Shown piece by piece: positions 2,598 through 16,390 of a stretch of 64,000 bases of DNA. The translations under genes and the position numbers were made by a program. The notes under the pieces are model-generated. The model did no database searches. It had not been told where the DNA came from and saw nothing but the letters and a program-made list of their open reading frames with translations. Within the stretch, counting starts at the first letter, position 1; each line of letters begins with the position of its first letter. Source of the stretch: an uncultured Bacteroidota bacterium (lineage in GTDB: Bacteria > Bacteroidota > Bacteroidia > Chitinophagales > Chitinophagaceae); the NCBI GenBank assembly GCA_903882965.1, contig CAIRZD010000279.1, positions 12,387 through 76,386 on the forward strand, in the 5' to 3' direction.

Positions 2598-4937
2598 CTA
2601 CAATGCCATATCAGCATCATCACTCGCGCTCACCTGCGGTGCTTGTTGTTCAGTAGCTTCTGTTTTATTATCGGTGTGCTCACGGCGTGGGCGGTCTTCA
2701 CGTGGTACGCGGTCGTTACCACCACGGTTACGGTCATTGCCTCTGCGGTCATTACCACCACTGCGGCGATCACCACGGTCGCCACCTTCGCTGCGCTCAC
2801 GTTTTTCAGGTTCTACATAACCCTCAGGTTTCGGCATCAATACCTTGCGGCTCAGGCGCAGCTTACCCGTCTTAGGGTCTGTACCTACCAGTTGTATCTT
2901 CACCTTATCACCTTCTTTCAGCACACCGTCCAGTGTGTCCAGGCGTTTCCAGCTCACTTCAGATATATGCAGCAAACCCTGCTTACCCGGCATAAACTCC
3001 ACAAACGCACCGAAAGGCATAATGCTCTTCACAGTACCTTCATAGGTTGCGCCTATTTCAGGTATTGCTACGATACCGCGTATCCATGTTAGTGCCTTAT
3101 CAATACTTTCTTTATTAGCAGAGAATATCTTTATCACGCCCTGGTCGCCTACTTCTTCTATATTTATTTTAGCGCCGGTCTCTCTCTGTATCTCCTGTAT
3201 TATTTTACCCCCCGGCCCTATTACAGCGCCTATGAATTCACGGTCTATGTTCAGTTGTTCTATCCGTGGTGCATGAGGTTTCAGTTCTGCACGTGCCGCA
3301 GGTATGCAGGCATACATAGCATCAAGTATATGCAGTCTGCCACGCTTAGCCTGCTCCAGTGCCTGCATCATAATGTCCATACTCAGGCCATCACACTTTA
3401 TGTCCATCTGTATACCGCAGATACCATCACGTGTACCGGTTACTTTAAAGTCCATATCACCCAGGTGGTCTTCATCACCCAGTATGTCTGTAAGCACTGC
3501 AAATTTACCACCCTCAGATATCAGTCCCATTGCCACACCACTCACGTGTTTTGGAAAAGGCACACCTGCATCCATCAGCGCCAGTGAGCCTGCGCATACC
3601 GTAGCCATTGATGATGATCCGTTGCTCTCCAGTATATCAGATACCACACGTACTGTGTAAGGATATTCAGCAGGCATCATTTGTTTCAGTGAGCGCATAG
3701 CCAGGTTACCATGGCCTACCTCGCGACGGCTTTGTCCGCGCATCATTTTCACCTCGCCGGTAGAGAATGGCGGGAAGTTATAATGCAAAAAGAATTTTAC
3801 ATAATCTGATGTTGCAGCGGTTTCTGCCAGCAGTTCATCTTCCGATGTACCAAAGGTTACAGAGGTCAGCGATTGTGTTTCACCACGTGTAAACAATGAA
3901 GATCCGTGTGGCGAAGGCAGCTGGTTTACTTCCATTGTCAGTGGGCGCACTACTTCAAGCGTACGGCCATCAAGGCGCACTTTTTCGTTCAGCATCATTT
4001 CACGTATCACTTTCTTTTCCAGGTCATGGAAATAAGTGCCTATCAATGCTGCATCTTCAGCGGGGAGCGGATTAGCTTCCCCATACTGTGCTTTAAAATC
4101 TTCTTTTACTTTCTTATATGCATCACCACGCTCATGTTTGCCCAGTGCTGCTTTCGAAATATCGTATATCCGCTTCGTTCCGAAAGCTGCTATCGTAGCC
4201 TCAAACTCAGGGTTAGTATATGGTTTTGTATAATCACGTTTAGTGGTTACACCCGCTTTTTCACGCAGTTCGTGTTGTAGTTTTATGTGCGCGCGTATGG
4301 CTTCGTGGCCTACTTCTATTGCTTTTACAAGGCCTGCTTCTTCACACTCCTTGCCTTCGCCTTCCACCATCATTATATTCTTGTCGGTAGCGGCTACTAT
4401 TATATTTATATCCGCGTCTTTTATTTGTGAGCGGCCTGGGTTCACAATGTATTCACCGTTTATGCGGCATACACGAACTTCAGATATTACTTCCTGTATC
4501 GGAATATCACTCACCGCCAGTGCAGCACTTGCTGCCAGGCAAGCCAGCGCATCAGGCATTACTTCCGCGTCTGATGATATCAGGGATACCAGCACCTGCA
4601 CTTCACACAGATAATCATCCGGGAATAGTGGGCGCAGCGCGCGGTCTATCAGGCGCGATGTAAGTATTTCATAATCATTAAGCCTTGCCTCACGCTTAAA
4701 GAAAGAACCGGGTATACGACCTGCAGAAGCAAATTTTTCCTGGTAATCCACACTTAGTGGGAAGAAAGATTGCCCGGGTTTGGGCTCCTTCGATGCTACA
4801 ACCGTAGCAAGTATCATGCAATCGCCAAGGCGCACTACTACCGAGCCGTCAGCCTGGCGGGCCATCTTGCCCGTCTCAATCGATATTTCGCGGCCATCAG
4901 CTAATTTCAGCGATGCGGAAATGGGATTTGGTGTCAT
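2598..4937 (-). CDS. pnp: Polyribonucleotide nucleotidyltransferase (PNPase)
   Basis: ETGKMARQADGSVVVR, RGETQ, FLHYNFPPFSTGE, ESNGSSSMA, DFKVTGT, KH (IGPGGK) and S1 domains; downstream of rpsO. Confidence 0.99.
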   Translation of the reverse strand: MTPNPISASLKLADGREISIETGKMARQADGSVVVRLGDCMILATVVASKEPKPGQSFFPLSVDYQEKFASAGRIPGSFFKREARLNDYEILTSRLIDRALRPLFPDDYLCEVQVLVSLISSDAEVMPDALACLAASAALAVSDIPIQEVISEVRVCRINGEYIVNPGRSQIKDADINIIVAATDKNIMMVEGEGKECEEAGLVKAIEVGHEAIRAHIKLQHELREKAGVTTKRDYTKPYTNPEFEATIAAFGTKRIYDISKAALGKHERGDAYKKVKEDFKAQYGEANPLPAEDAALIGTYFHDLEKKVIREMMLNEKVRLDGRTLEVVRPLTMEVNQLPSPHGSSLFTRGETQSLTSVTFGTSEDELLAETAATSDYVKFFLHYNFPPFSTGEVKMMRGQSRREVGHGNLAMRSLKQMMPAEYPYTVRVVSDILESNGSSSMATVCAGSLALMDAGVPFPKHVSGVAMGLISEGGKFAVLTDILGDEDHLGDMDFKVTGTRDGICGIQMDIKCDGLSMDIMMQALEQAKRGRLHILDAMYACIPAARAELKPHAPRIEQLNIDREFIGAVIGPGGKIIQEIQRETGAKINIEEVGDQGVIKIFSANKESIDKALTWIRGIVAIPEIGATYEGTVKSIMPFGAFVEFMPGKQGLLHISEVSWKRLDTLDGVLKEGDKVKIQLVGTDPKTGKLRLSRKVLMPKPEGYVEPEKRERSEGGDRGDRRSGGNDRRGNDRNRGGNDRVPREDRPRREHTDNKTEATEQQAPQVSASDDADMAL

Positions 4938-5474: not shown

Positions 5475-5858
5475 AACAAATAATACGAAAAAATGGAATA
5501 AAATTGATTTTTGTTGTTAAGTTTCGATCTTATATATTAATATTTTACACATAATTGCATTGCTGCTTTATCTGTTTGTTGCCACATTCTTGTTCGTTTA
5601 ACACATTACTAAGCCATGTAAAATATTGTAAATTATAATTATGCGACTTGTCTGCACCAATATTTAAAGTAAAGAATAACTCTGTAAAATCATCAAATGA
5701 ATTACCCACTCTAGTCCAAGGCCTCGCTTGCATATAATCACGCAGCCGCCTGGTTCAAGTCCAACGTAGTCAGGTCGTTTTATATGACATTTGTCAAATA
5801 AAGTAATGAAACAATAGAATAGATTTGTGATGATTAATTATAATGCTAAAACTTGTTT

Positions 5859-6284
5859 ATGAAAAACAAAGCAATATTACTGGTTGCATGCATGCTGTTT
5901 ATTGGTTTACAATTTTCTTATGGTGGTTTTGTGATCAAACAGTCTGCACATAAGTCCGTTGCCAATAAAGTAATAACGGCAGCCAATCACAGCACTGCAA
6001 AAGGATCATCCTTCGCATATTGGTTTCAAAAAAAATCCGGCCTGTTTAAAACAATATTTCGTGGTCATCCCGAAAAAGGAGCACTCGGTAATTGGGCACT
6101 TATTTTAGGGATATTGAGTTTCATCCCGCTTGTCGGATTCATATTTGGTATTCCTGCCATTATTTTGGGCGTAAAAGGAATCAGGAAAAATCAAAAACAT
6201 GCTCGTTTAGGTATGATCTTCGGCATTTGTACAATATCTGTGGGCCTTATTCTGATTATTCTAACCATCGTTCTGTTCCCTTAA
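5859..6284 (+). CDS. Secreted/membrane protein with a DUF4190-like C-terminal region
   Basis: Signal peptide, then GNWALILGILSF...GIPAIILGVKGIRK...ARLGMIFG two-helix pattern. Confidence 0.7.
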   Translation: MKNKAILLVACMLFIGLQFSYGGFVIKQSAHKSVANKVITAANHSTAKGSSFAYWFQKKSGLFKTIFRGHPEKGALGNWALILGILSFIPLVGFIFGIPAIILGVKGIRKNQKHARLGMIFGICTISVGLILIILTIVLFP

Positions 6285-11125: not shown

Positions 11126-11407
11126 ATGGCCTCATATAGCATTGGCGATGCTCTAAAACTATTCCTCGAAAAATCGCACTGGAAACCAAAAGTGTTGGAA
11201 CTGCGTATGCGCGACGAGTGGGAGCAGATTGTTGGCAAAACCATTGCTAAGTATACCCGCAGCATCAGCCTAAATGGCAAAACGCTATCTATCTATTCAG
11301 ATGTCGGCCCGCTCAAACAAGAATTGATGCTAGGTAAAGATCAGTTAATAGTTCGTATCAATGAATATTTTGAGGATAAGGTTGTTGAAGATATTATTAT
11401 CAAATAA
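11126..11407 (+). CDS. DUF721 / DciA-family protein
   Basis: WEQIVGKTIAKYTRSISLNGKTLSIYSDVGPLKQEL...LIVRINE. Confidence 0.85.
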   Translation: MASYSIGDALKLFLEKSHWKPKVLELRMRDEWEQIVGKTIAKYTRSISLNGKTLSIYSDVGPLKQELMLGKDQLIVRINEYFEDKVVEDIIIK

Positions 11408-11458
11408 AGCGCTTTTTAACATTTTTCAAGTGAACTATTTAATAGCTTTATATTCTGA

Positions 11459-11824
11459 ATGAAAGTAATAGCGTCCATATTGTGCTTGTATTTGTTTGGT
11501 TTGTGTGTGCAGCCTGCCCTTTTTATTTTGCATCCGAGGAAAACAAAAGTGATGAGTTGTTGTCTTAAAAAGAACATGAATAAAACTCATAAAGATGGGT
11601 GTTCAAAAGATAACAGCGGCAATGATGATTGTTGTGGTGGAAATCAGTGTAATCCTTTTTCTAGCCAATGCCCGGTATGTGCAGCTACAGGCGTAATTAC
11701 TCCAAAGTACCAGCTCCCTGATGGAGGATTTGATAATTACATTAGATCAAAATACTTCTCTTATTACCACTTCACAATTAGCAACTACCAGTCAGATATA
11801 CTTCATCCTCCCCGGGCAGTTTGA
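11459..11824 (+). CDS. Cys-rich membrane peptide with a C-terminal HPP motif (DUF2946/DUF6660-like)
   Basis: N-terminal hydrophobic helix ending VQP, CC...C...CC...CNPFSSQCPVC, terminal ILHPPRAV. Confidence 0.7.
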   Translation: MKVIASILCLYLFGLCVQPALFILHPRKTKVMSCCLKKNMNKTHKDGCSKDNSGNDDCCGGNQCNPFSSQCPVCAATGVITPKYQLPDGGFDNYIRSKYFSYYHFTISNYQSDILHPPRAV

Positions 11825-11888
11825 TAATACACACAAGTACCTTAATTGGGTTTTGATCTTTATTTTCAAACTTTTAAAATCAACAAAA

Positions 11889-12095
11889 ATGAAAAAGATA
11901 ATTTTTGCTGTTGCTACTGCAACAATATTGTCTGGCACTATTGGCATTGCCAGCGCTTACGACTACAATAACACAGCTAAGAAAGCAGCCAAATCTGCAT
12001 CATGCACTTGTGCAGATTGCGCTTGCAAAGATTGCAATTGTCCGGATTGTAGCAATTGTAATTGCTGTGGTTCTGGGAATTGCTGTAAGAAATAA
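11889..12095 (+). CDS. Secreted metallothionein-like small protein (68 aa)
   Basis: MKKIIFAVATATILSGTIGIASA signal peptide, then SCTCADCACKDCNCPDCSNCNCCGSGNCCKK (12 Cys); ATG at 11889 after an A-rich leader. Confidence 0.75.
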   Translation: MKKIIFAVATATILSGTIGIASAYDYNNTAKKAAKSASCTCADCACKDCNCPDCSNCNCCGSGNCCKK

Positions 12096-12111: not shown

Positions 12112-12150
12112 AAAAAGCCCCCGTAACTTATTATGTTATGGGGGCTTTTG
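12112..12150. terminator. Bidirectional terminator
   Basis: AAAAGCCCCC...GGGGGCTTTT hairpin between convergent genes. Confidence 0.75.
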
Positions 12151-12171
12151 TTATTTAAAAAAATGACTGGC

Positions 12172-14274
12172 TTATTTTTTTACCAATGAATGTTTTTGTT
12201 TTACCCCGGCTTTTTTAGGAGATATCAGCAGCGCTACTTTATAAAAGTCAGCGGCAGTGTTTATCACTTTCCGGTATCTTTCATAATCGTTCGGTGAGAA
12301 ATGGAGCTGGTTATAAAATTCGTTGATGGATATTACAACTTTATCACCGTTTTTCTTGTCGGGTATTATCTTGTAATCCGAGTTAAAACTGATCACAGGC
12401 TGTATTTCCCGGTTCACATAATCTGCGTGCATGCGTAGGGCTTCCGGGTTAAGTATTTTATAACCCACCGGCAGGTTTAATGTAATGGTACGGTTCTCAG
12501 AGTTTGGATAGTCCAGGTCCACCCGCAGTCTGCGGTCATCATCATTATAAAGCTGGTGTTGAGGGCCTATTATTTCTCCTACTTTAAAGAGGTAATTCTT
12601 ATCAGCTTGGTCCGTTAGCTGGGACGTGTTCACAGTAGCTGTGATCTCCAGCGGCTTATTTTTATAATAGTTGTCAAACCTTTCGTTGGTGATAGTATAC
12701 TTAATAATATCTCCGGGTTTGTCAGCGATAGTTACTATTCTTTTTATAAGGTCTTTTTCTTTATCCTTAGGCTCTGTAGCTATTTCTTCCCTCAGTGAAG
12801 TAGATGCGTAGCCGGTATAAGAATAGGAAATATCAATTTGTGCATCCATCTCATTTGTAAAGGAAACTGATGCTGCAATATTCGATTGGGTTTCATTTGA
12901 TGAGAATGGAGGTATCGTTCTTATTTCAGAAAGCGCCCCGGTTGGCAAGCCATTAGGTGGGATAGTACAAAACACACCCTTATTACCAACAACAACTTCC
13001 TGTACCATTGGGTAGCGAAGATATGTGCTTGTAGGTGAAATGAATTTATTGAAATCAGGGAAATAGAAAAGATGATAATCCATATTATCCCAGTTCTCAA
13101 ATTTGCTGTCAAATAACCTTTCGTGGCGGTTTCCTGCTACTCCCAGTTCATGGTTCACACCGGCCTGGATGAAGCAGGCAACGAAAAGCTTAATGATACC
13201 CGATGGAGTAGCAGCACGTTTTGCAATGATACTATCCAGTACGTTTTTGGTATCATCATAGGCTACATCATAAAGGGATATAGAGCGTAGGTTTTGAGTG
13301 GCCAGTACTTGTTTTCTTTCATCGTAGTCCACGTAGCCATATTGGACTATCCCGGTTTTTATTCCGTTCTCTATTTTCTTTAAGTTTTCCAGCTCATTGC
13401 CATTGGGCTTTACGCCAAGCTCAGAAAGATATGCATTCACAGCAGATCTTTCTTTGTCAGTTATCTTGTAGTAACTGTCGTATAAATTCCTGCCAAGATC
13501 ACTCCAGGTATATTGTTTTTTTCTGTTGTTCTCATTTTCATAATTAAAATGGTCTAGCCTGTATTCCAGGCGCATACGGCGCAGGTCGTAGTAGCTGTTA
13601 GGCTCTGGGCGCAACTTAGGAATATTATACATGGAGACGTCCATATGCCGCCTGTTATGTATCAATGTATCTTTCACATCCGGGAAACCATTGTATCCTT
13701 TCTCCTCGAATACCAGTTCTTTAGGATAAGACATCGAGAAGTGGCTGCTCAATACCGGTATTGGCTGTTGCAATACTTCGCTTCCAAAAAGTGACGCAGG
13801 TATGATCTCCCTGATAAGGTATTCTATTTCAGCGTCCTTCTCTACACCCTCCATTGCAATGATTATTGTCCAGCGGCCATAGGGGTCTTTGGTAACCTTT
13901 ATCATGTCCTTGGCAATATCCTTTACTTTGCCATTGGGTAATATCGTGCGTGCTTTTACCGAAGGAACCCTTGTTCCGGGATTAACTGGGAAATCAAGCG
14001 TGTTGAAATTTTCAATCCCCCTGTCATCCAGCACTTTTACAATACGGTGTTCAGTAATATAGGTATTTACACTTTTCCCCTCATTACGGTAATCAAGCGA
14101 AACATTTTCCAGTAATACAATAGCAGGCTCACTTGCATATTCCGGCGGCACAGGATGCACAACGGGTTTTTCAGCCCATTCCTCATAAGTTGGTTCGTAA
14201 CGGGATGCGCGTTGTGCCGTAACGGAAAACGCCATTATGGAGAAAAGGAAAATAAATAAAGTAAGTTTTTTCAT
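12172..14274 (-). CDS. DUF3857-domain secreted protein, transglutaminase-like fold without the catalytic Cys
   Basis: Signal peptide; HRIVKVLDDRG, VEKDAEIEY DUF3857 pattern; C-terminal RRLRVDLDYP; no GDCKD motif. Confidence 0.8.
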   Translation of the reverse strand: MKKLTLFIFLFSIMAFSVTAQRASRYEPTYEEWAEKPVVHPVPPEYASEPAIVLLENVSLDYRNEGKSVNTYITEHRIVKVLDDRGIENFNTLDFPVNPGTRVPSVKARTILPNGKVKDIAKDMIKVTKDPYGRWTIIIAMEGVEKDAEIEYLIREIIPASLFGSEVLQQPIPVLSSHFSMSYPKELVFEEKGYNGFPDVKDTLIHNRRHMDVSMYNIPKLRPEPNSYYDLRRMRLEYRLDHFNYENENNRKKQYTWSDLGRNLYDSYYKITDKERSAVNAYLSELGVKPNGNELENLKKIENGIKTGIVQYGYVDYDERKQVLATQNLRSISLYDVAYDDTKNVLDSIIAKRAATPSGIIKLFVACFIQAGVNHELGVAGNRHERLFDSKFENWDNMDYHLFYFPDFNKFISPTSTYLRYPMVQEVVVGNKGVFCTIPPNGLPTGALSEIRTIPPFSSNETQSNIAASVSFTNEMDAQIDISYSYTGYASTSLREEIATEPKDKEKDLIKRIVTIADKPGDIIKYTITNERFDNYYKNKPLEITATVNTSQLTDQADKNYLFKVGEIIGPQHQLYNDDDRRLRVDLDYPNSENRTITLNLPVGYKILNPEALRMHADYVNREIQPVISFNSDYKIIPDKKNGDKVVISINEFYNQLHFSPNDYERYRKVINTAADFYKVALLISPKKAGVKQKHSLVKK

Positions 14275-14279
14275 CGTTA

Positions 14280-16238
14280 TTATTTGTTGGCAGTGAGTAC
14301 TACTGATTCCTTGTATGCGTGATTTAGGTCGTCGATGATCTTATTATTTTTGGCAAATTCTTTATCGCTTAAAGAAAGTGATTGCAACTCATATTCTTTT
14401 GTGAGTATTATTTTTTTCTTATCAGCTTTGTAAGATATTTTGTAGCTCCATACACCATCAAGCGCACCATGTGCTTCGCCCGGCAAATGAGTTACTTTAT
14501 ACCCTTCAGGAATGTCGAGTACTACTACTTCCTTAGTCTTTGATTTGTTTTGATAATAGTAGCCCACATTACGTTCGCTGTCATCCATGCGCTGGTTCCC
14601 AAACATGCGGTCAAGGTTCATGTTCACATAGTATTCTTTGCCCACAATATGCGCGTAATCCTGTAAATTGAAATCGGCAGTAAGGGTAGCCTCTTTATTA
14701 CCTGTTTCGGCTGCATTTACTTCATACTTTAATTGTTTGTAGTTATCGGAACCCCTTGCCAGCAAAGATCTAATAGCTTTATCCCGGTCTTCGGTTTTAA
14801 GATAATTAGTAATGCGGGCAATATACCATGCCGGGTACCCTGTGCAATTTTGTTTTATGCTCCCCTGTAAGTTGGTATATGATAAATGAATGAAAGTACT
14901 GTCTGTGGTCACACTTTTATCAGCTGGTGCCACGGGTATCCGTACCACTTTATAGTTATTCTGGTCAATACAAATAAGCGCTTCTTTTCCTTGTATATCA
15001 AACCTGTTCTCACCAAATGGCTGTATATTGTCTGTACCATCCAGAAACACCCAGTCATCATCCAGTTTAATGGCACAGATCACATGGTTAAAGATATTCG
15101 GCGAGGGTAATTCTTCAGTTGTATAAGGAAGATCCCATGTGCCTATAATGGCGAAATAAGCTTTGATACCGGCCTGGCGGCACATAGCCATGCACATGCT
15201 GGCCATGTCTTTACAATCGCCGTATTTTCTTTTAAATACGGTGTCAGCGGGGCGGGGTACAAAACCTTCAAGGCCTTTTTCAAAGGCGATGTAATGAATA
15301 TTTTTCTGCACCCAATTATAAATATGTTTAGCCTTTTCACGTGGGGTCTTATCATTTTTGGTGATCTCTGCTACAGTTCTGGTAATGGCCGTATCCAGTT
15401 TTATATTAAGGTCTTTTACGTGCCGGAATTCGTACTTATAATGTGCATCAGGGTCTTTCAGAACCAATGAATCTTTCTGCGCGCCGGTAAGCCTGTATGA
15501 TGAAATGTAAGGAATGATATGAGGTGAGTAATACCAAATGGAAGGAGCAAGATTATAAGCCTTTGAAGCATGAAGGTCTTTGGCTGTAAACCTATAGATG
15601 ATCTTCCCGTCTTTTTCTTCTTTAGTCTGGGTTACATGTATGTTGTCGAGATTCTTTAAGACAAAATTTATCTTTACATAGTTCGGCACGGTTACTTCAT
15701 ACACGGTATTTACTATAGGTATATTTGCCTTAAAAACAAATGGTATGAGCTGTGCAATGTCGGTATGCTCCATTGTATACTTTGTTTCAGTTACTGAATT
15801 TTTTGTCAGCCCTGAATAATATGCCATCACGCCTCTCACGTCATCATAAAACGAGCTGGTTACCTGGCCACCTTCCCCAAATCCATAATTCTCTGTTCTT
15901 TTATAGCCACCGTTCTTATCCGGTATCAGTGCTAAACCGGAAACATTTGTAAGCGGATGAAAATCACTATACCAGAAATAATCCCTGTTATCATTAGCAG
16001 GAGAGAGGTCGCTGATCAATAATTTGTCCATGGTCACATAAGTATTGGCTACAAGGCTGCCATCCTCTTCTGTTATTATCAGTTTCTCGGTATAATTAGT
16101 ATAAACCGCATTCTCGTTTTTATATTTTTCGGCAATGCTGTCATATTTTTCACGTTCGGCGGTTTTCTGGGCCCACAAAGAGCTGGCCAGCAACAGCGTT
16201 ATTATCAGCAGGCATGCTGTCTTATTTAGCTGGGGCAT
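14280..16238 (-). CDS. DUF3857 and transglutaminase-like domain protein
   Basis: IYNWVQKNIHYIAFE, YGDCKDMA (Cys), FNHVIC (His), FLDGT (Asp) triad. Confidence 0.9.
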   Translation of the reverse strand: MPQLNKTACLLIITLLLASSLWAQKTAEREKYDSIAEKYKNENAVYTNYTEKLIITEEDGSLVANTYVTMDKLLISDLSPANDNRDYFWYSDFHPLTNVSGLALIPDKNGGYKRTENYGFGEGGQVTSSFYDDVRGVMAYYSGLTKNSVTETKYTMEHTDIAQLIPFVFKANIPIVNTVYEVTVPNYVKINFVLKNLDNIHVTQTKEEKDGKIIYRFTAKDLHASKAYNLAPSIWYYSPHIIPYISSYRLTGAQKDSLVLKDPDAHYKYEFRHVKDLNIKLDTAITRTVAEITKNDKTPREKAKHIYNWVQKNIHYIAFEKGLEGFVPRPADTVFKRKYGDCKDMASMCMAMCRQAGIKAYFAIIGTWDLPYTTEELPSPNIFNHVICAIKLDDDWVFLDGTDNIQPFGENRFDIQGKEALICIDQNNYKVVRIPVAPADKSVTTDSTFIHLSYTNLQGSIKQNCTGYPAWYIARITNYLKTEDRDKAIRSLLARGSDNYKQLKYEVNAAETGNKEATLTADFNLQDYAHIVGKEYYVNMNLDRMFGNQRMDDSERNVGYYYQNKSKTKEVVVLDIPEGYKVTHLPGEAHGALDGVWSYKISYKADKKKIILTKEYELQSLSLSDKEFAKNNKIIDDLNHAYKESVVLTANK

Positions 16239-16390
16239 ATGTATTCTTTTACTGGTCATTTAGGCAAGTATTAATGCTTGGTAATGGTCTTTAAAAAACA
16301 GAGTATAAATATAATGATAAAAATATTGTTGTGGTTAATTTTTAAAATATTAATAACAGCGCTGCCATTGCTAAATAATTAAAAAGTATA

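Follow-up and report, generated by a model that had tools for sequence, protein, structure and literature searches.

The 64,000-nucleotide stretch of DNA analysed here (the window; positions 12,387 to 76,386 of the forward strand of contig CAIRZD010000279.1, assembly GCA_903882965.1, from an uncultured member of the Bacteroidota family Chitinophagaceae) carries a self-contained cassette of ~700 bp composed of two open reading frames (ORFs), ORF1 and ORF2. We are highly confident that these form a real, conserved and linked two-gene unit related to the protein family DUF6660. At roughly even chances, in our judgment, ORF1 is a metal-gated leader peptide that controls ORF2, an exported metal sponge using cysteine thiolates; in this reading, the binding of metal, the arrest of the ribosome, which way the regulation runs and which metal takes part are inferred. 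The original prediction, made from the letters of the window, had suggested an exported metal-chelating protein accompanied by an HPP-tailed peptide that might act as a metal-responsive leader. This explanation is the one best supported by comparative evidence, namely the kinship of ORF1 with DUF6660, a layout shared with the leaders CutF and CruR, and the signal peptide and composition of ORF2.

We examined how the pair is distributed by searching 301 genomes from the same bacterial family with a profile and by scanning one metagenome. ORF1 and ORF2 lie side by side in no fewer than 15 independent loci of Chitinophagaceae genomes and metagenomes, separated by 46-99 nt (64 nt in the window, on the same strand), with identities across homologues of 34-59% for ORF1 and 38-66% for ORF2. 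The five genomes having strong ORF1-clade matches (E < 1e-25) are exactly the five having strong ORF2 matches (E < 1e-17), and the two genes adjoin in each of these carrier genomes (G000, which is the window's own, G041, G088, G096 and G215). Thus, the pairing of the two conserved ORFs is well beyond chance. The L007 lineage possesses ORF2 without ORF1, indicating that ORF1 is dispensable for the function of ORF2, as expected of a regulator.

The pair is nearly absent from protein databases. A word-indexed search of 5.8 billion protein clusters yielded three entries per gene, the window's own included, and a search of 1.84 billion representative proteins with an ORF2 profile hidden Markov model (HMM) yielded only 19 clusters. 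The ORF2 clusters listed are 50-88 amino acids (aa) long, apart from one mis-started call of 178 aa, and are Cys-rich with a hydrophobic, signal-peptide-like N-terminus; the database entry of one homologue is Flavipsychrobacter sp. A degenerate-pattern scan with ORF1 over GTDB representative genomes gave zero matches, whereas the whole-genome profile search did find relatives. Public gene calls miss ORF1 or truncate it (82 aa), and place ORF2 in a wrong frame or begin it far upstream (178 aa), as observed in L001, L006, P0001 and P0017. At L001 an uncalled ORF1 homologue (5596-5952) lies 48 nt upstream of an ORF2 homologue, and at L006 (5422-5652) ORF2 is annotated in the wrong frame. Such missed and misframed calls of both genes partly explain their scarcity in databases. 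In the ORF list of the window, likewise, ORF2 is visible only within a 124-aa frame starting at 11721. The original prediction had nevertheless assigned it 68 aa from the ATG at 11889, and the family alignment agrees, as all ORF2 homologues start with MKK at the matching position.

Two metatranscriptome contigs match the cassette with 0 mismatches. One (11583-11762) falls within ORF1, and the other (11791-11967) extends from the end of ORF1 across the intergenic hairpin into ORF2. These contigs are direct, if weak, evidence that the two genes are expressed and co-transcribed.

Features of the cassette, in window positions:

11459-11824, + strand: ORF1, 121 aa; CutF-like and related to DUF6660, putatively a leader or arrest peptide that senses metal.

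11889-12095, + strand: ORF2, 68 aa; predicted Sec-exported, metallothionein-like mini-protein.

11443-11450, + strand: promoter-like box TAGCTTTA, 16 nt before the ORF1 start; a pattern match.

11465-11536, + strand: hydrophobic stretch without charged residues at the N-terminus of ORF1 (residues 3-26); either a signal peptide or a signal anchor.

11558-11680, + strand: Cys cluster of ORF1 (residues 34-74, SCC...C...CC...CNPFSSQCPVC); putative metal-sensing site.

11801-11812, + strand: L-H-P-P of ORF1 (residues 115-118), three codons before the stop; putative ribosome-arrest motif.

11818-11872, + strand: AU-rich hairpin between ORF1 and ORF2; the final Val codon and TGA stop codon of ORF1 form its 5' arm.

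11889-11957, + strand: signal peptide of ORF2, MKKIIFAVATATILSGTIGIASA, with a predicted cut after A-S-A.

12003-12086, + strand: Cys-rich candidate metal-binding region of ORF2 (residues 39-66, 12 Cys).

12113-12153, + strand: intrinsic terminator closing the cassette, a 15-bp GC-rich stem followed by a T-run.

The ORF1 protein starts with MKVIASILCLYLFGLCVQPALFILHPRKTKVMSCC, contains SCC and DDCCGGNQCNPFSSQCPVC, and ends with ILHPPRAV. Its CC/C clusters, its CNPF..C..C motif and its terminal HPP are thus present as originally described. Alignment of eight ORF1-clade sequences reveals that C34, C35, C48, C58, C59, C64, N65, P66, C71 and C74 are invariant, as are L115, P117 and P118. The direct HMM searches that had been suggested for the cassette (DUF2946, DUF6660, metallothionein) were all without a match, and hmmscan of ORF1 against Pfam and NCBIfam returned zero families at E <= 1. 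Comparison of profiles uncovered the relationship. Aligning the ORF1 clade (alignment A4, 8 sequences) with DUF6660 (alignment A3, 8 members above cut-off) by hhalign gave a probability of 98% and an E-value of 1.4e-13, with columns 1-115 set against columns 1-106 and 102 columns aligned. Furthermore, the ORF1 profile recovers bona fide DUF6660 genes of two genomes (G148 and G053) over their full length, and the Cys region of ORF1 is aligned to the CSPFCxCxCC motif of DUF6660. Judged by these profile alignments, ORF1 represents a divergent clade that is sister to DUF6660, a Bacteroidota family. Both have a hydrophobic helix followed in order by a C(S/N)PF...C..C cluster, a spacer of ~43 residues with little conservation and (W/L)xPP near the C-terminus. 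They differ in that ORF1 has VQP instead of PCSD after the helix, a basic rather than an acidic flank following it, and an additional SCC...C...CC block.

DUF6660 genes occur in 72 of 151 genomes of the bacterial family; in the window's own genome the PF20365 search found no canonical member. For the top canonical DUF6660 genes (8/8), a CusA/CzcA RND gene, recognized by its TIGR00914 match, lies 107-270 nt downstream, which ties the relatives of ORF1 to metal homeostasis. The context of ORF1 differs from that of canonical DUF6660, as ORF2 and a terminator follow it rather than a CusA/CzcA gene. PF11162, the HMM of DUF2946, scored above cut-off in 0 of 101 genomes of the family, and no connection of this family to DUF6660 loci was found either.

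Within the family, distant DUF6660-like genes are followed, no more than 100 nt 3', by small secreted proteins that have no evident similarity to ORF2. L023 (1078-1434, minus strand) encodes a 118-aa secreted protein with 21 Cys and CC repeats. L025 (1292-1435, minus strand) and L046 (746-892) encode secreted peptides of 47-48 aa with three CC pairs, and L019 (1895-2083), L022 (1268-1447, minus strand) and L024 (1413-1598) encode secreted peptides of 59-62 aa with six Cys in the mature part. The Cys mini-proteins of L019, L022-L025 and L046 have no Pfam match above cut-off. In L020 (1929-2863), L021 (1911-2849) and L045 (1782-2135) a secreted HMA-like protein follows the DUF6660-like gene, and in L020 and L021 a thioredoxin-like (AhpC/TSA) protein comes next. 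In addition, a lipoprotein with a heavy-metal-binding domain (PF19335, HMBD) is encoded just upstream of the DUF6660-like gene of L046 (77-322). This recurrent pairing of one leader type with exported Cys-rich or metal-binding proteins is the strongest contextual argument we have and suggests that ORF2 handles metal.

The thioredoxin-like gene that comes after the equivalent pair in L020 and L021 fits a different role as well, and so does the dominance of Cys in both proteins of the cassette. ORF2 could be a sacrificial periplasmic thiol buffer against oxidants, electrophiles, polysulfide or arsenite, with ORF1 sensing the same stress by its Cys. We regard this thiol/redox role as very unlikely, as the informative neighbors of the relatives are mostly metal-specific (CusA/CzcA, HMA, HMBD) and copper is what the characterized leaders with this layout, CutF and CruR, respond to (PMC9973294, PMC9426467).

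ORF2, whose complete sequence is MKKIIFAVATATILSGTIGIASAYDYNNTAKKAAKSASCTCADCACKDCNCPDCSNCNCCGSGNCCKK, is predicted to be cleaved into a signal peptide, MKKIIFAVATATILSGTIGIASA, and a mature part running from YDYNN to SCTCADCACKDCNCPDCSNCNCCGSGNCCKK. By inspection, the signal peptide consists of an MKK n-region, ~17-21 hydrophobic or uncharged residues, and A-S-A preceding Tyr24. A Sec-type signal peptide with a small-x-small site is kept, again by inspection, in 26/26 members of the ORF2 family, the set over which Cys were also counted (the alignment of the family, A6, holds 16 sequences). The 12 Cys of residues 39-66 are arranged as CxCxxCxCxxCxCxxCxxCxCC....CC. Seven of these (C39, C41, C44, C46, C51, C54, C66) are invariant and three more (C49, C57, C59) are nearly invariant, in contrast to the variable residues between them; the core CxCxxCxCx[DN]CxCx[DN]C and the C-terminal CCxK show little or no variation. 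The Sec signal and the 12-Cys tail noted at the outset are therefore conserved traits of the family.

The composition of mature ORF2 is metallothionein-like. It spans 49 aa with 24% Cys when cut by a crude cleavage rule, or ~45 aa with 27% Cys when cut after A-S-A, and contains 4 CxC, 5 CxxC and 2 CC motifs, 2 Tyr, 0 Met and 0 His. These features agree with the operational definition of metallothioneins as small proteins with a high content of Cys in CxC, CxxC and CC motifs and few aromatic residues. AlphaFold2 models ORF2 with a pLDDT of 52 and one short helix, and predicts no autonomous fold. Searches of Pfam and NCBIfam, metallothionein families included, gave zero matches at E <= 1, and comparison with the PDB gave only signal-peptide-level similarity to cytochrome c precursors (E >= 0.095).

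We also considered whether the cysteines of ORF2 are paired in disulfides. Disulfide-knotted peptides keep a fixed and even Cys framework. In the ORF2 family the mature part has 9-15 Cys, and their number is odd in 12/26 members. A variable, often odd Cys count together with frequent CC and CxC motifs fits a fixed disulfide scaffold poorly and resembles metallothioneins. Moreover, DsbB and VKOR were both undetected in 4/5 carrier genomes, including the window's own genome and one that is 100% complete, suggesting, though no more than suggesting, that enzyme-driven oxidation of periplasmic thiols may be weak in these bacteria. A small Cys-rich protein with a signal peptide, encoded in a compact cassette together with a single-pass membrane protein, could otherwise be a disulfide-rich secreted antimicrobial or signalling peptide devoid of any metal role, with ORF1 as its membrane immunity or processing partner, and DsbB is present in one carrier genome. 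We find such a peptide quite unlikely. Besides the Cys counts, the dense CxC and CC motifs are unfavorable for disulfides, the enzymes are missing from the other four carriers, ORF1 is kin to a family that heads CusA/CzcA pump genes, and sister loci contain HMA and HMBD domains. The cassette is likewise linked to neither a transporter nor a maturase gene; that no transporter gene adjoins it in the window had been pointed out from the start.

ORF2 resembles the bacterial metallothioneins SmtA/BmtA and MymT (PMC7558416) in its small size, in its 20-27% Cys arranged in CxC, CxxC and CC motifs, in its few aromatic residues and in the lack of a predicted autonomous fold. It shows no similarity in sequence to any family of metallothioneins and differs by its Sec signal, since the characterized bacterial proteins are described as cytoplasmic (PMC7558416). 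The original prediction had stated that characterized bacterial metallothioneins are cytoplasmic; this stands for SmtA/BmtA and MymT, and it leaves out two exported binders, Csp1 (PMC7558416) and the bufferins (PMC11626156).

Small exported proteins that handle metal are known. SilE and PcoE are periplasmic 'metal sponges' using Met and His. Csp1 is a Tat-exported four-helix bundle, lined with Cys, that binds copper (PMC7558416), and bufferins are Sec-exported, Cys-containing peptides made on ribosomes and modified after translation (RiPPs) that complex periplasmic copper (PMC11626156). Like ORF2 these proteins are small and exported, and for each of the known ones the buffering of excess copper or silver beyond the cytoplasm has been either shown or proposed. 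ORF2 differs from Csp1, as its MKK n-region has no twin arginine and its model shows no helical bundle. The absence of Met and His from mature ORF2 indicates that its ligand chemistry differs from that of SilE and PcoE.

The likeness to bufferins raises the question whether ORF2 is itself the precursor of a bufferin-like RiPP metallophore, with modifying enzymes encoded elsewhere in the genome. We rejected this explanation, which we consider extremely unlikely, because the carrier genomes have no MNIO gene. The search for MNIO/DUF692 (PF05114), which did not extend to DUF2063, was negative in all five carrier genomes, while its Caulobacter control was positive. Furthermore, no maturase gene is conserved beside the pair, as the genes flanking it vary between loci, and ORF2 matches no Pfam or NCBIfam entry at E <= 1, in libraries whose coverage of DUF2282 and BUF_6/12Cys is unconfirmed.

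We suspected that ORF1 acts while it is being made, as do two known copper sensors. CutF of Rhodobacter capsulatus (cutFOG) and CruR are small upstream ORFs whose nascent product senses copper by Cys and pauses on a C-terminal proline motif (PMC9973294, PMC9426467, bioRxiv 10.1101/2025.02.05.636593); the pause governs the next gene through an intergenic RNA element (PMC9973294, PMC9426467). According to the rules that define CutF-like proteins (PMC9973294), ORF1 agrees with three of four: it is shorter than 150 aa, its PP (117-118) falls among the final 15 residues, and a gene less than 1000 nt downstream shares its orientation. For the fourth, an N-terminal signal peptide, ORF1 shows a hydrophobic segment of 22-27 residues and then a basic flank, which suggests an anchor with the C-terminus possibly inside. 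A CutF-like stem-loop that a paused ribosome could open is present at the ORF1 stop codon, leaving the ORF2 start uncovered. Bacteroidota members are not listed in the text supplements of the CutF study (PMC9973294).

CutF and ORF1 are alike in their hydrophobic N-terminal segment, in a Cys motif placed ~43-45 residues before a C-terminal proline motif, in a short intergenic stem-loop and in a downstream co-oriented gene for an exported metal-handling protein, a role that for ORF2 is the proposed one. They differ in detail. ORF1 has eight invariant Cys and (H/R)PP(Q/R), whereas CutF has CxxxC and PPP; the hairpin here covers the stop codon of ORF1 rather than the start region of ORF2; and the target is a 68-aa Cys-rich peptide instead of a multicopper oxidase. 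CutF itself reportedly escapes detection in vivo even though it is translated.

One sign of an arrest peptide is the distance between the Cys cluster and the proline motif. In 15/16 ORF1-clade members 42-43 residues separate the last core Cys from the first Pro of PP, although the intervening sequence is variable, and in 13/16 members PP is followed by three residues to the end. In DUF6660 this distance measures 41-44 residues, and in other DUF6660-like proteins 38-41. In CutF, a distance of 45 residues from Cys to the proline motif puts the metal site just outside the ribosomal tunnel at the pause, according to its authors. A spacer of fixed length and variable sequence is what is expected of a ruler measuring the tunnel, and is hard to explain by a folded protein. 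AlphaFold2 predicts only the N-terminal helix of ORF1 (pLDDT 47), and the lack of a predicted fold fits a product that acts during its synthesis.

A second sign is the hairpin on the ORF1 stop codon, which we assessed by folds anchored on that codon and by shuffled sequences. It is found in 13/15 loci, compared with 42% of shuffles, and begins 9-12 nt after the PP codons. The hairpin of the window has a z-score of -2.6, and in most close loci fold energies are 2.6-6.6 standard deviations below those of shuffles. At the middle position of the stop codon, base changes are matched by changes in the pairing partner (G-C in 6 loci, A-U in 6 and G-U in 2), and further positions also flip. Given the intergenic regions aligned by MAFFT, RNAalifold yielded no structure, as the loops are too variable in length to align. 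At canonical DUF6660-CzcA loci a stop-codon hairpin occurs in 1/8, so that it is not general there. We rejected an intrinsic terminator as the main explanation of this hairpin: it is AU-rich without a consistent T-run, unlike the GC-rich, terminator-like hairpins that follow ORF2, and the RNA contig reads through it. A search of Rfam leaves the hairpin unmatched, its sole hit being the terminator after ORF2, below threshold.

The N-terminus and the cysteines of ORF1 also allow for a protein that persists. Residues 3-26 of ORF1 are 24 uncharged residues with a mean Kyte-Doolittle hydropathy of 1.94; the net charge is +1 before this segment and +5 in the next 15 residues. Throughout the clade the segment measures 22-27 residues, and the 15 residues after it carry +3 to +5 in 7/8 members and +1 in L016. 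A segment of this length can span a membrane, and the basic flank is anchor-like. ORF1 may then be a stable membrane-anchored, Cys-rich metal protein, a chaperone or sensor partner, that forms a two-protein relay with ORF2, in which case PP and the hairpin would serve, for example, protein contact or mRNA stability. Its eight invariant Cys, far above the CxxxC of CutF, speak for such a protein, as does the remark of Öztürk et al. (2023, PMC9973294) that isofunctionality does not extend to all CutF-like proteins. We nevertheless judge a stable ORF1 unlikely: weighing against it are a Cys-to-PP spacer fixed in length and free in sequence, the missing fold, the occurrence of ORF2 alone in L007, and a hairpin that begins on the very stop codon of ORF1.

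CruR (Bp2923 of Bordetella pertussis) provides a further comparison for ORF1 as a leader. It is a DUF2946 upstream ORF that senses copper by Cys and has a conserved C-terminal R-A-P-P arrest motif (Roy et al. 2022, PMC9426467). CruR acts independently of its signal sequence (PMC9973294), and such independence would fit an ORF1 that faces the cytoplasm. In CruR, copper relieves the arrest, leading to Rho-dependent termination and thereby switching off an uptake transporter (PMC9426467); for a sequestering protein such as ORF2 the opposite logic is expected. The intergenic region of cruR is long (162 nt), and no sequence similarity between CruR and ORF1 was detected.

Based on these comparisons we propose how the cassette might work. 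The hydrophobic helix of ORF1 would bring the growing polypeptide to the membrane. By the time the ribosome arrives at the (L)(H/R)PP codons, the Cys cluster, 42-43 residues behind, would just have left the exit tunnel, and a thiophilic metal bound to it, most likely Cu(I), possibly Zn, Cd or Ag, would prolong the pause at PP. A ribosome paused 9-12 nt upstream of the hairpin would keep the hairpin open, and the open hairpin would favor expression of ORF2 from the shared transcript, possibly by way of a standby site or of RNA stability. ORF2 would be exported unfolded by Sec and its signal peptide removed after A-S-A, whereupon the mature protein of ~45 residues may bind excess periplasmic metal in thiolate clusters, like a metallothionein acting as a sponge.

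Several observations weigh against this model. In the window, no metal-homeostasis gene lies beside the cassette. The genome-wide search with PF20365 (DUF6660; gathering score 27 bits) misses the ORF1 locus, the DUF2946 HMM (PF11162) does not match ORF1 at E <= 1, and the link from DUF6660 to CutF and DUF2946 is one of layout, not of demonstrated homology. Among strong arrest motifs, (H/R)PP(Q/R) is not a documented one. Under the positive-inside rule, the basic flank indicates that the Cys domain of ORF1 may stay in the cytoplasm, unlike that of CutF. The 3' arm of the hairpin ends 17 nt before the ORF2 ATG (17-25 nt across loci), leaving the start codon uncovered. Bacteroidota mostly initiate translation without Shine-Dalgarno sequences, which also sets the host phylum apart from the CutF case. 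With a hairpin clear of the ORF2 start and scarce Shine-Dalgarno initiation, the CutF mechanism of a shielded Shine-Dalgarno sequence cannot apply unchanged. As for the hairpin itself, its shuffle control is weak given the 42% background, the loci are phylogenetically related, and the base pairs were counted in folds predicted one locus at a time. The RNA evidence consists of two short metatranscriptome contigs, and metatranscriptomes can contain DNA. Finally, G088 does encode DsbB, and periplasmic thiols could oxidize without an enzyme.

The kind of regulation proposed for the cassette is a known one, that of a CutF-like leader, and the target family is undescribed. In the literature searched we found no description of an exported or periplasmic bacterial metallothionein and no naming of DUF6660. 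A wider proposal is more tentative, and we put its chances clearly below even: ORF2 may be the founding member of a natural family of Sec-exported thiolate metallothioneins, gated by an unrecognized DUF6660-like branch of Bacteroidota arrest peptides. This branch would be marked by (L/W)-x-P-P, a spacer of ~43 residues and a multi-Cys sensor that may face the cytoplasm, would act via a hairpin on its own stop codon, and would be repeatedly paired with other exported Cys mini-proteins in sister lineages. If the reading of the cassette is correct, metal sensing by arrest peptides of the CutF/CruR type reaches a Bacteroidota lineage, where initiation differs, and coupling via a stop-codon hairpin would be new in detail, in a phylum with little Shine-Dalgarno initiation. 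DUF6660 and its relatives would gain a testable function. An exported Cys-thiolate 'metallothionein' would also have been identified, as opposed to the exported copper buffers built on helical bundles, thiooxazoles or Met/His.

The shared terminator, first placed at about 12112, comprises a 15-bp hairpin (12113-12149) and, after it, a T-run, with a folding free energy (dG) of -27 kcal/mol and a z-score of -5.5. A strong GC-rich hairpin lies 3' of ORF2 in 15/15 loci checked, mostly with a T-run, and its recurrence indicates that the cassette is a closed two-gene unit. At the 5' end, the -7 promoter box of Bacteroidota is TAnnTTTG, and a TAnnTTT[AG] box is located 13-19 nt upstream of the ORF1 start in 9/14 loci (the window, L006, L015, L016, L034, L035, L038, L040 and L041). 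With the box of the window so close to the ORF1 start, the ORF1-ORF2 transcript would be nearly leaderless and separate from that of the upstream gene, which encodes DciA.

Upstream of the cassette the window encodes DciA (11126-11407), a 228-aa protein of unknown kind and a PDZ protein. On its other side, downstream, the minus strand carries two tandem genes for large paralogous secreted DUF3857-type proteins (12172-14274 and 14280-16259), a pair not kept beside the cassette at other loci. In most loci, from several genera (L006, L015, L016, L018 and L035-L044), the cassette is located directly 3' of the helicase-loader gene dciA. This order is probably an inherited one, without an obvious functional link. 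On the metagenome contig of L006, the dciA-ORF1-ORF2 block is preceded by genes for an IS1595-type transposase and a Bro-N/BstA-like protein (1351-2241 and 2705-3469).

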